From positions 1-64,000 of the IMG/VR virus record IMGVR_UViG_3300028591_000003: 64,000 nt of DNA; one strand, written 5' to 3'. Made by a program: the position numbers and the translations under genes. Every line of letters begins with the position of its first letter. Within the stretch, counting starts at the first letter, position 1. Of this stretch, positions 4,145 through 62,349 are shown in pieces. The notes under the pieces were generated by a model. That model saw nothing but the letters and a program-made list of their open reading frames with translations. It was not told where the DNA came from and ran no database searches. Origin of the DNA: a virus. Lineage: Duplodnaviria > Caudoviricetes.

Positions 4145-4442
4145 TTATATCAATTATTTCTCCTGTTTTTAATATATGAATTTTAACTCCCCAAGCTATT
4201 CCTGCACAAGGATAAAATTCATACGAAATAGTTCCTTTTTCTTGATAAAGTTTTTGAGAATCTTTATATTCCTTATCAGATAAAGTAAATGTTCTTATTT
4301 TACTTTCCCAAGGAGTTAAACAATATTTAGAAGTATCAATTAATTTCCATCTAGTAAATTTATGCTTTAAAGCTCTCCAAAATAAATTCCATTTTGTAGC
4401 TTTTGCCAATTTATCATTTTTATAAATCCAAGTTTTCTTCAT
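4125..4442 (-). CDS. hypothetical protein
   Basis: ORF; likely start MKKTWIY overlapping the upstream stop. Confidence 0.65.
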   Translation of the reverse strand: MKKTWIYKNDKLAKATKWNLFWRALKHKFTRWKLIDTSKYCLTPWESKIRTFTLSDKEYKDSQKLYQEKGTISYEFYPCAGIAWGVKIHILKTGEIIDISDVDSW

Positions 4443-4696
4443 ATTACACAACAGAAATCGTCTATATACCAACAATCTTGGGAATATTCATTTACTAATT
4501 CAGATGGGAGAATTATCTGTTCTCTAACAAAATCTTCTAATAATTCTTTATTATCGTAATCTTCAAAATCTTCAGGAACTTCTATATCTACTGTGGTACT
4601 AAGACATTGTGAAATATTAACAGGAATCATTTTAAATTTTCTATTCCAAGGAGCTATTTTTTCCTCAGATTGCATTAAAGTTGGAGTATTATCCAT
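4439..4696 (-). CDS. hypothetical acidic protein
   Basis: tiled ORF in operon. Confidence 0.7.
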   Translation of the reverse strand: MDNTPTLMQSEEKIAPWNRKFKMIPVNISQCLSTTVDIEVPEDFEDYDNKELLEDFVREQIILPSELVNEYSQDCWYIDDFCCVI

Positions 4697-5099
4697 ATTT
4701 TTTAATATTTTCTATAAGATGTTCTTTTACAGCTTTAGTAAATCCTGGAATGTAACAAGGATTAATTTCTTTCAATTCTCCTGATTCTGTAGATTCATAT
4801 ACTTCATAATCAGAATAACTATCAAAAGCATATTCATTTCCAGGATAAAAATAGTTTTCAATAGCCCAATTTAAAAGACTATCTGGAATAAGATTTAATA
4901 ACTCTAAATCTGATAACTTTTCAAATTCTTCATCAGAAATATTTTGACTTGCTTCATCTGCACCAAAAGCTTCCCTTAAATCATCAATATCTATATCTAC
5001 TGAATTTACTAACTCTTCAAAGGATAAATTAACATTAGAATTTAATTCTCCTCCTTTGTAACTGAAAACATTAAATAAATGATACAATTTATTCATCAT
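4689..5099 (-). CDS. hypothetical acidic protein
   Basis: tiled ORF. Confidence 0.7.
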   Translation of the reverse strand: MMNKLYHLFNVFSYKGGELNSNVNLSFEELVNSVDIDIDDLREAFGADEASQNISDEEFEKLSDLELLNLIPDSLLNWAIENYFYPGNEYAFDSYSDYEVYESTESGELKEINPCYIPGFTKAVKEHLIENIKKYG

Positions 5100-60705: not shown

Positions 60706-60851
60706 AATTCTATAACATTTACAACAGTACAATTTTCATACTTTCTTTCAAAATCGCTTATAGCTTTAGTTTTAGAAGTACTATTAACATAGTGATGTAT
60801 AAACTTCCGTGTAGATTCATCAAATGCAACTACAAAAAAATGTTCCATAAT

Positions 60852-61412
60852 TTAAAGTTGTTTAAGTTGTTCATACAAAGTTTCAAGGGCGTTTGGATAA
60901 CTTGTAAAATGTCCTTGATCTATTACTTCTTTGACTGATTTTAATTGTTCCTCAGTTGGTTTCCACCTTTGCTTTGGCTGTGGCTGCACTCTATCTTTGA
61001 GAGATTTGAGCCAAGACTTTAACTTTTCCGCGTATTCTTTTCTAAAAACATTTATTTTGGTAAGTGTTTTGAGTTCGCCAGATAGGGCATAAAAGTTATC
61101 TATGACCTCAATACAAGCTGCTAAATATTCTTTATCCTCTTCACTCCAATTAGGCTTCTGTGCATTTTCATACTTATTGTCTTTATGTATAACAAATACT
61201 TCCTTGATGCAACCTTTCGGAATAGTCGTAATATTAGAATACTGTTCTGGATCATTACCATAATTTTGTGCTATAGCAAGAAACTCATCAGTATCCTTGA
61301 CAACTACACCAAAAGAATTAATATATATCGGTTCTACCTCAATGTCCTCTGCAACAGTCCAATTCATATTTGAATTACAACTGTCTATCCATAAAACCTT
61401 TACTATCTTCAT
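60852..61412 (-). CDS. fusion of an unrelated beta domain to family E C-terminal modules
   Basis: N-term KIVKVLWIDS..TIPKGCI; C-term WSEED..WLKSLKDRVQP..WKPTEEQ..LYEQLK. Confidence 0.75.
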   Translation of the reverse strand: MKIVKVLWIDSCNSNMNWTVAEDIEVEPIYINSFGVVVKDTDEFLAIAQNYGNDPEQYSNITTIPKGCIKEVFVIHKDNKYENAQKPNWSEEDKEYLAACIEVIDNFYALSGELKTLTKINVFRKEYAEKLKSWLKSLKDRVQPQPKQRWKPTEEQLKSVKEVIDQGHFTSYPNALETLYEQLKQL

Positions 61413-61425
61413 ATCTTTCTATTTT

Positions 61426-61611
61426 TTAATTGGTCATTGAAAAATCCTCTACTTTTCGCATTACATCTCTTAGTTTGACATTGTACAGTCTTTGAGACTC
61501 TTCAATGCGTTTATCTATTTCTTCAACCTGCTCTCTGCTAAATACAGAATTAAAATCTTTTTCTTCAGGAAATAGTTTTTCTGTTAATTTGTAATATTTT
61601 CGTTTTTTCAT
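61426..61611 (-). CDS. hypothetical protein
   Basis: short ORF. Confidence 0.55.
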   Translation of the reverse strand: MKKRKYYKLTEKLFPEEKDFNSVFSREQVEEIDKRIEESQRLYNVKLRDVMRKVEDFSMTN

Positions 61612-61614
61612 AAT

Positions 61615-61717
61615 TGTGGAGCGTGTCAGAGTCGAACTGACTTGGAATCACCCATTACCAACACTTGTACTCGGTTCCCGATTTAAACAATCGTTACTGA
61701 TTGTATACTTACGCCCC
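61615..61717 (-). ncRNA. tRNA/tmRNA-like small RNA with Ala identity pair
   Basis: GGGGCGT/ACGCTCC acceptor with G3:U70 and A73; T-arm GTCAG-TTCGACT-CTGAC; no canonical D or anticodon arm. Confidence 0.72.
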
Positions 61718-61842
61718 GTTTGTACCTGTCGATAGAAATACACATACGTGCAATATGTAAATCATATTCTGCAGGTACTTTGCACGATTTAAATCACTGA
61801 CCTTTTATTTCACACTCTCTCGCATGAATCTTTGTGATCACT

Positions 61843-62043
61843 CTATACCTTTTGAGTATAGTTTCGGGAACAAAGTTTGTTGGTTGTCAACACCACATCT
61901 TCCGACTTGGTTACATAACAATAACCTTTCAAACGTCTCTTTGGTACTTTTGCAAGGTATATTCTAAAACACAAGCACCTTTTCCCAAAGTCTATTACAC
62001 AACTATTAACAAAGTTGTATGTAAATCCGTATAGTCTTGTCAT
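61843..62043 (-). CDS. hypothetical protein (TAG stop)
   Basis: short ORF in operon position. Confidence 0.45.
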   Translation of the reverse strand: MTRLYGFTYNFVNSCVIDFGKRCLCFRIYLAKVPKRRLKGYCYVTKSEDVVLTTNKLCSRNYTQKV

Positions 62044-62052
62044 GCTTTATTG

Positions 62053-62349
62053 TTATTTCTTTTTAAGTTCGTTATATTTATTAAGTAAGGCTTCCTTACA
62101 TTTACTCAACCAATATTCTCTTTCTTCTTCTGTATCAAAAGAACCTTTATATTCGTCGTCTACTCTTTCGTTGAAAACTTTGTCACAAACTCGTATGTCA
62201 TTATCTGTAAGTTTTCCTTTTGGAAGATAATCGCAAGTCAAATGTCCCCAACGAAGCCTAATATATCCTATAATGTGAGAACCCTTATACGCCCAATATT
62301 GTTCTGGGCAACATCCGCACGTTTGTTCTAATATAATAGTATTTGCCAT
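62053..62349 (-). CDS. hypothetical phage protein
   Basis: TCGCCPEQY..GYIRLRWG. Confidence 0.72.
   Translation of the reverse strand: MANTIILEQTCGCCPEQYWAYKGSHIIGYIRLRWGHLTCDYLPKGKLTDNDIRVCDKVFNERVDDEYKGSFDTEEEREYWLSKCKEALLNKYNELKKK

Follow-up and report, generated by a model that had tools for sequence, protein, structure and literature searches.

The G3:U70 base pair is the determinant for alanyl-tRNA synthetase (AlaRS); its presence in an acceptor helix suffices for charging, and an acceptor stem stacked on a T-arm is a chargeable minihelix. In bacteriophages, the closest described RNA is the tmRNA of mycobacteriophage DS6A (tmRNA Website 11587), which consists of the tRNA-like domain only and has no coding part, and a molecule similar to it inhibits tmRNA, perhaps via titration of SmpB (PMC4131195, PMC11915505). 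In the literature, DS6A appears to be the one phage with an RNA of this kind. [quoted passage not shown] Here, we analysed the window, i.e. positions 1-64,000 (64,000 nt) of the virus record IMGVR_UViG_3300028591_000003, together with the remainder of this record, which is a complete phage of 176,443 bp with terminal repeats. We describe a 103-nt tRNA-like element on the minus strand (61615-61717) that keeps an acceptor stem and T-arm with alanine identity and lacks an anticodon. Its structure and identity elements show that it is a genuine tRNA mimic, and it is probably a non-decoding tRNA- or tmRNA-like mimic belonging to a type seen repeatedly in phages.

Up to the discriminator A73 (61617), the element is 101 nt long. 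The acceptor 5' strand GGGGCGU (61711-61717) pairs at all seven positions with the 3' strand ACGCUCC (61618-61624) with pair probabilities of 0.9-1.0, yielding G1:C72, G2:C71, G3:U70, G4:C69 and C5:G68 among the 7 bp; A73 and then CA follow, and CCA is not encoded. Flush with the acceptor 3' strand, a T-arm (61625-61641; pair probability 0.98) is formed by the 5-bp stem GUCAG/CUGAC and the 7-nt loop UUCGACU, which fits the consensus UUCRANY. Acceptor (~1.0) and T-stem (0.98) are also stable when the element is folded with 150 nt of flanking sequence on each side. As read from the sequence, the alanine identity set (G3:U70, A73 and the G1, G2 and G4 pairs) is complete, and it is common to the tRNA-Ala of this phage and the tmRNAs of its relatives. 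An earlier reading made from the letters alone (hereafter, the sequence-only reading) had described the acceptor pairing with G3:U70 and A73 and the adjoining perfect T-arm, and had noted that the D-arm and anticodon arm are missing and that the locus lies outside the tRNA cluster. All of these points are borne out: the 69 nt between the acceptor 5' strand and the T-arm hold neither a D-arm nor an anticodon arm, and the tRNA clusters lie at 43.4-48.4 kb and 65.3-68.2 kb.

Two other arms occupy this interior. At the D-arm position, the hairpin ACAAUC/AGUAAC/GAUUGU (61687-61704) lacks GG and does not constitute a D-arm, and no GG in the element is placed for docking on the T-loop. At the position of the anticodon arm, or of helix P2 in tmRNA, an irregular arm (61644-61679) pairs element positions 39-45 with 66-74 at a probability of 0.5-0.7, and a 7-nt anticodon loop is absent from this region. 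The same region can alternatively form the hairpins UCGG/CCGA and UUGG/CCAA with probabilities of 0.2 and 0.06. Thus, the two hairpins named in the sequence-only reading are both present in the sequence, but only ACAAUC/GAUUGU prevails in the thermodynamic ensemble (~0.87), whereas UCGG/CCGA (~0.2) competes with the more probable irregular arm. A crossing second helix proposed for the leader region is not part of the minimum free energy (MFE) fold, which has a leader hairpin GUACCUG...CAGGUAC (61722-61787, minus strand) ending 4 nt 5' of G1, within the lineage-specific patch described below. The 3' trailer of the element starts with AC, as it does after most tRNA genes of the phage. Because two non-tRNA arms replace the D-arm and anticodon arm, the element cannot decode.

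Chance does not account for this architecture. The MFE of the element is -30.2 kcal/mol (z = -2.5 versus shuffles). A T-arm with at least three G-C pairs flush with a 7-bp acceptor with at least five G-C pairs was found in 0 of 150 Markov-random genomes of the same size versus three times in the real genome, and the element is the only alanine-type locus among these three. Under loose criteria, an alanine-type match is expected 0.05 times per random genome.

The sequence-only reading had proposed ARAGORN and the Rfam models for tmRNA and Y RNA as checks, and the element is called by none of them. ARAGORN, with or without its intron option, calls no tRNA or tmRNA at this position, and the element is not among the total of 24 tRNAs, with no tmRNA, that it reports for the 176,443-bp genome. 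At gathering thresholds, Rfam has no match for the element; in E-value mode, tRNA-Sec leads the tRNA clan with 14.4 bits (E = 7), RF00005 is not reported, and RF00023 (tmRNA), RF02544 (mt-tmRNA) and RF02553 (YrlA) give no match at E <= 10. By these models, the element is neither a tRNA nor a tmRNA nor a YrlA RNA.

The phage has tRNAs with ~500-nt introns as well as other tRNAs with inserts of 28-54 nt, and the 3' ends of tRNA and tmRNA genes commonly serve as attachment sites (PMC4131195); the element might accordingly be read as a decoding tRNA with an unconventional intron, or as the attachment-site remnant of a host tRNA-Ala or tmRNA gene. We consider this very improbable. None of 1896 single deletions of 8-55 nt turned the element into a tRNA call at the default or a relaxed threshold, while the same scan gave 839 and 574 calls for two insert-bearing tRNAs (E1 and E3) of the same phage that served as controls. 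Decay of a tRNA-Ala, which the sequence-only reading had itself raised together with an attachment-site remnant, is not what is seen either: the acceptor of the phage's tRNA-Ala(UGC) differs in sequence, the two sequences are unrelated, and the element is not a decayed copy of this gene. Among 185,579 species-representative genomes, no tRNA or tmRNA contains its exact 21-nt 3' end, the sole match of this 21-mer being within a coding region and taken as chance. That no host tRNA or tmRNA has this 3' end argues against a recent attachment-site remnant, as far as exact identity is concerned, and an attachment site would not need both acceptor strands, which are present here.

With respect to tmRNA, the ends of the element had been likened in the sequence-only reading to the tRNA-like domain. 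This likeness holds for the alanine acceptor, the T-arm and the missing anticodon, but it is generic only: RF00023 is silent, and, by eye, there is no D-loop analogue of the GG-UUCGAC type after the acceptor 5' strand. A P2-like arm leading into the T-arm is predicted at a probability of only 0.5-0.7. The same reading saw no room for a tag open reading frame, and we find none: the region 62060-61612 has no tag-like reading frame or resume codon with an alanine-ending tag. Moreover, the phage has no SmpB gene. We also considered whether the apparent 440-nt gap around the element might be a tmRNA that has diverged or been permuted. The gap shares two short blastn words with the tmRNA of relatives, but nhmmer returned nothing and there is no tag frame, and we rejected this candidate.

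Full tmRNAs are present in two long relatives of 175-182 kb, at L172:11309-11938 (plus strand; 630 nt, with internal blocks missing from the other copy) and at about L173:12039-12500 (plus strand). In both, the tmRNA sits between tRNA-Asp and tRNA-Val and has a G3:U70 acceptor and a GGAUUAGAC D-loop analogue; from the usual resume position, a stretch ends in alanine codons before the stop, and RF00023 scores the relatives' tmRNA at 35.8 bits (E = 3e-12). The corresponding place in the phage studied here contains only 240 unrelated nt, and no tmRNA homologue was found anywhere in its genome. The complementary pattern of a tmRNA in the relatives and a mimic in this phage spans three genomes and is a lead, not evidence; this pairing of presence and absence suggests that the clade manipulates trans-translation.

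Similar RNAs are present in other viral contigs. A pattern search of IMG/VR (GGGGC...GCUCCA plus a T-loop spaced too far away for a normal tRNA) gave more than 118 stretches, from which 80 loci were fetched. A perfect 7-bp acceptor, together with a T-stem in which 4 or 5 of the 5 pairs form, is found in 31 of the 80. ARAGORN calls five of these; the other 26, although structurally perfect alanine-acceptor RNAs, are uncalled, i.e. standard annotators miss the whole class. Uncalled RNAs of 82-116 nt with a perfect alanine-type acceptor and T-arm occur in many unrelated contigs, at the loci L054, L059, L061, L064, L065, L088, L099, L101, L107, L108, L114, L119, L123, L164, L168, L169 and others. 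Three RNAs of 82-89 nt from unrelated contigs, found in addition to the 31, share the exact acceptor of the element. RF00023 scores 4 of 8 tested loci as tmRNA, and three of these exceed the gathering score although they measure just 89-111 nt; domain-only forms of this length reach 50-67 bits. The GG-UUCGAC-type motif is seen in L061, L099, L108 and L123. Some candidates, such as L062 (44.8 bits as tRNA), are insert-bearing tRNAs, and others match nothing. Because RF00023 also misses the likely domain-only RNAs L059, L065 and L107, its failure on the element is not decisive. An 8-mer common to the element and L108 was judged to be chance. Viral contigs contain dozens of uncalled alanine-acceptor mini-RNAs, some of which score as tmRNA without the message part, as in DS6A.

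The genome itself recodes TAG and has an unusual set of RNA genes upstream of the element on the same strand. Early genes are on the minus strand and use the standard code, while late genes (80-176 kb) are on the plus strand and are open only if TAG is a sense codon: ORFs of at least 80 aa total 175 kb with TAG as sense versus 100 kb. A suppressor tRNA(CUA) lies at the start of the late block (84701-84777, plus strand). At 65.2-71.7 kb (L002:1200-7700, minus strand), there is an array of 96-136-nt tRNA scaffolds and short payloads that have a helix module in common. In this module, the helix AGAUACUU/AAGUAUCU covaries with AGUUACUU/AAGUAACU and is followed by ACAA; the module either brackets the payload or forms a hairpin inside the D-loop or anticodon loop, and some members turn into ordinary tRNAs when the insert is removed. 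Relatives have the same kind of array at L170:12300-18000 and L171:12300-18100. In one of these, a 133-nt scaffold RNA (L171:14564-14696, plus strand) has an alanine-type acceptor, GGGGGAU/GUCCUCC, with G3:U70 and A73. Its D-arm is normal, its anticodon region contains a module-like motif, and the intron option of ARAGORN reads the anticodon as UUA. In the phage studied here, the same option reports a tRNA-Arg(UCU) and a tRNA-Leu(UAA) with ~500-nt introns in the anticodon loop at 66519-67094 and 68303-68884 (both minus strand; L002:2519-3094 and 4303-4884). These may be group I introns; the Rfam searches performed here gave no intron match.

Next to this array, a 619-aa protein with a Ro60-like fold is encoded at 71662-73521 (L002:7662-9521, minus strand), with the gene end ~10 kb upstream of the element. 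When its structural model is compared with the PDB by Foldseek, the top nine matches are without exception Ro60/TROVE proteins, aligned from end to end (E 2e-5 to 1e-3), at TM-scores of only 0.22-0.31; Pfam TROVE has no match in the protein. Its viral family is large, with over 1,262 homologues in metagenomes, some of which are annotated as DUF2828 or DUF7788. Directly after the gene, a YrlA-like RNA is predicted at 71472-71590 (L002:7472-7590, minus strand), where RF02553 scores 39 bits, below the gathering score. Together, the protein and the YrlA match look like a divergent phage pair of Ro60 and Y RNA. This raises the question of whether the element is a Y-RNA-like partner of the Ro60-fold protein and a further member of the 65-72 kb scaffold array. 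In the array RNAs, UACAA comes after a shared helix, and three bare UACAA motifs cluster in a 60-nt stretch at the element or immediately ahead of it, an arrangement with a frequency of ~4e-4 in shuffles. We nevertheless hold such a partnership to be quite improbable. On its own, UACAA shows hardly any enrichment in the array (2.6 versus 1.9 per kb), the TM-scores of the Ro60 fold match are low, the array module AG(A/U)UACUUACAA is absent from the element even at two mismatches, the YrlA model gives no match, and the topology of the element is not permuted. Homology of the interior to the scaffold RNAs of the clade, including the alanine-type one at L171:14564-14696, was rejected as well, as the alignment scores against every one of them are at shuffle level (z < 1.4).

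The genes around the element are all co-directional, and the region is a recombination-prone field of shuffled modules. The element is part of a lineage-specific patch of ~330 nt (61557-61885, minus strand), together with the leader and a new 5' end for the gene that follows. In the apparent 440-nt gap around the element, the first 200 nt are a truncated member of a conserved ~77-aa family: DNA identity to two genes of this family is high from the ATG to ~61885 and gone beyond, and the resulting 66-aa ORF (61843-62043, minus strand), which has 23 homologues, diverges in the alignment past residue ~52, its 3' third having been replaced by the patch. Downstream, a 61-aa ORF (61426-61611, minus strand) has its ATG 3 nt past the element; its conserved C-terminal module starts at residue 19, and only the last 43 residues are common to its homologues, none of which has the element upstream. 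The element is also absent at the homologues of the upstream 98-aa gene. In eight relatives with 71-90% DNA identity in that gene, similarity stops at 62049-62062, where one contig ends. In a strain variant (ENA ERZ1667847), an identical 98-aa protein is directly followed by a 127-aa gene, which equals in length the ATG-start ORF found here at 60705-60322. If these two are the same gene, the variant lacks ~1.3 kb (about 60706-62049), i.e. the gap, the element and the genes for the 61-aa and 186-aa proteins.

Homologues of the element's interior were not found in any of the collections searched; the sequence-only reading had suggested a homologue search in Bacteroidota phages. A distant blastn search with 61400-62100 against 50,697 phage records gave no homologue, nor did exact 21-mers from the 5' half in JGI metagenome contigs or from the 3' half in IMG/VR, in searches whose output leaves out near-identical records. 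When the element was turned into a covariance model and run over this phage, over 13 viral records and over 105 loci including the two 175-182-kb relatives and 13 metagenome loci, the model matched acceptors and T-arms only and revealed no interior homologue. The only copies seen are 100% identical. Two contigs identical to the window, L032:1-1692 (JGI 3300024345) and L033:1-1248 (Logan SRR7634034), both end at 61672, past element position 46; this shared end may be a variant junction in the element, or one low-coverage sample assembled twice. As none of the relatives that were retrieved carries the element, there is no sign of covariation or of purifying selection on the fold. Because the patch truncates a conserved gene and a near-identical strain apparently lacks the whole block, the element may be recent and dispensable.

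These observations bear on the possibility that the element is an evolutionary by-product, i.e. a rearranged piece of a clade tRNA scaffold caught in a recent recombination patch and maybe transcribed and processed, without a selected function. The patch interrupts the conserved 77-aa gene at codon ~52 and supplies a new 5' end to the gene that follows, the eight relatives lose similarity at 62049-62062, the strain with the identical 98-aa protein is apparently without the block, the region is a field of shuffled modules, and the clade is rich in tRNA-like donors; in addition, a D-stem-like GUAU/GUAC and the motif UUGGUAAU of the element recall the scaffolds of the clade. We regard such an origin without function as only slightly less probable than our preferred reading given below. 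Against it, acceptor and T-arm retain all 12 of their 12 stem pairs and the T-loop still fits the consensus, whereas nothing in the interior is recognisable, and neutral decay would not spare exactly the half of a tRNA that matters for charging and processing. Moreover, the alanine set is complete, and the similarity of the interior to every scaffold RNA is at chance (z < 1.4).

The position of the element between co-directional genes, 3 nt before the ATG of the 61-aa gene, would also fit a processing signal that acts in cis. In this model, the tRNA shape would recruit RNase P and the 3' tRNA nuclease to a polycistronic early transcript, freeing the upstream leader and yielding a near-leaderless mRNA of the 61-aa gene. 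A 7-bp acceptor with a T-arm is the RNase P determinant, and the YrlA of M. smegmatis is cut by RNase P and obtains CCA (PMC4201824); the start context of the 61-aa gene, ACAAUUAUGAAAAA, resembles other gene starts of the phage. By contrast, a complete alanine identity set is not required for processing, and genes homologous to the downstream ORF manage without the element. A role in cis seems unlikely to us.

Based on these data, our preferred reading, to which we give a probability of roughly 0.35, is that the element is an alanine-type, non-decoding mimic that is processed like a tRNA, is probably charged and competes for factors that bind the top half of tRNA and tmRNA. We infer its processing, charging and role as a decoy along the following lines. 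The element would be transcribed together with the co-directional early genes; RNase P would cut at G1, the 3' tRNA-processing nuclease would cut past A73, and a host enzyme would add CCA. Alanyl-tRNA synthetase could then charge the element, because G3:U70 in an acceptor helix suffices for this enzyme. Once charged, the element would act in trans as a competitor or decoy for SmpB, EF-Tu, AlaRS or defence toxins that target the acceptor end, in analogy to the tmRNA of DS6A with its tRNA-like domain only. An alanylatable decoy had been put forward in the sequence-only reading. The alanine identity set, the T-arm and the published DS6A precedent for a decoy (PMC4131195, PMC11915505) speak for it, while a match to RF00023 and relatives carrying the element are missing on its side.

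If the element is indeed alanine-charged and non-decoding, it would be a phage tool against ribosome rescue (SmpB-tmRNA), against EF-Tu or against AlaRS, or a sponge for toxins that attack acceptor ends. The setting sharpens this question, as TAG is recoded in the late genes and close relatives have a full tmRNA with a tag frame while this phage does not. One could go further and speculate that the element belongs to a distinct and widespread class of phage alanine-charged, non-decoding RNAs that is not derived from tmRNA, that it replaces here the full tmRNA of the relatives, and that it blocks host trans-translation or an acceptor-end-targeting defence during pauses at reassigned TAG codons; in this full form, we think that the proposal is probably not correct. 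Because it has no relatives and lies in a recent recombination patch, the element is a weak exemplar of the class.

A comparison with the known systems places the element as follows. With YrlA (RF02553; PMC4201824), it has the tRNA mimicry, the T-arm and an acceptor-like stem in common. However, YrlA is circularly permuted with a loop-closed acceptor, has its two ends in a Ro-binding stem, keeps the D-arm and adjoins the Ro60 gene, whereas the element has open acceptor ends, no D-arm and no match to the model, and lies ~10 kb from the Ro60-fold gene. Bacterial tRNA-Ala has the first five acceptor pairs, G3:U70 and A73 in common with the element, which is without the D-arm and anticodon arm and scores below 15 bits with the tRNA model. 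The tmRNAs of jakobid mitochondria and some plastids (RF02544; PMC11915505) likewise consist of the tRNA-like part only and have alanine identity; unlike the element, which has no RF02544 match, they are organellar, ~65-77 nt long and traceable to an ancestral tmRNA. The element has no sequence homology to the full tmRNAs of the phage's own relatives. It differs from DS6A-type forms in having no RF00023 match and no GG-UUCGAC-type analogue, in its extra hairpin at the D position and in that CCA is not encoded. At the same time, the element and the tmRNA of DS6A have the same overall design: both are phage-encoded RNAs of ~100 nt or less with G3:U70, A73 and a T-arm, and both do without an anticodon and a tag frame.
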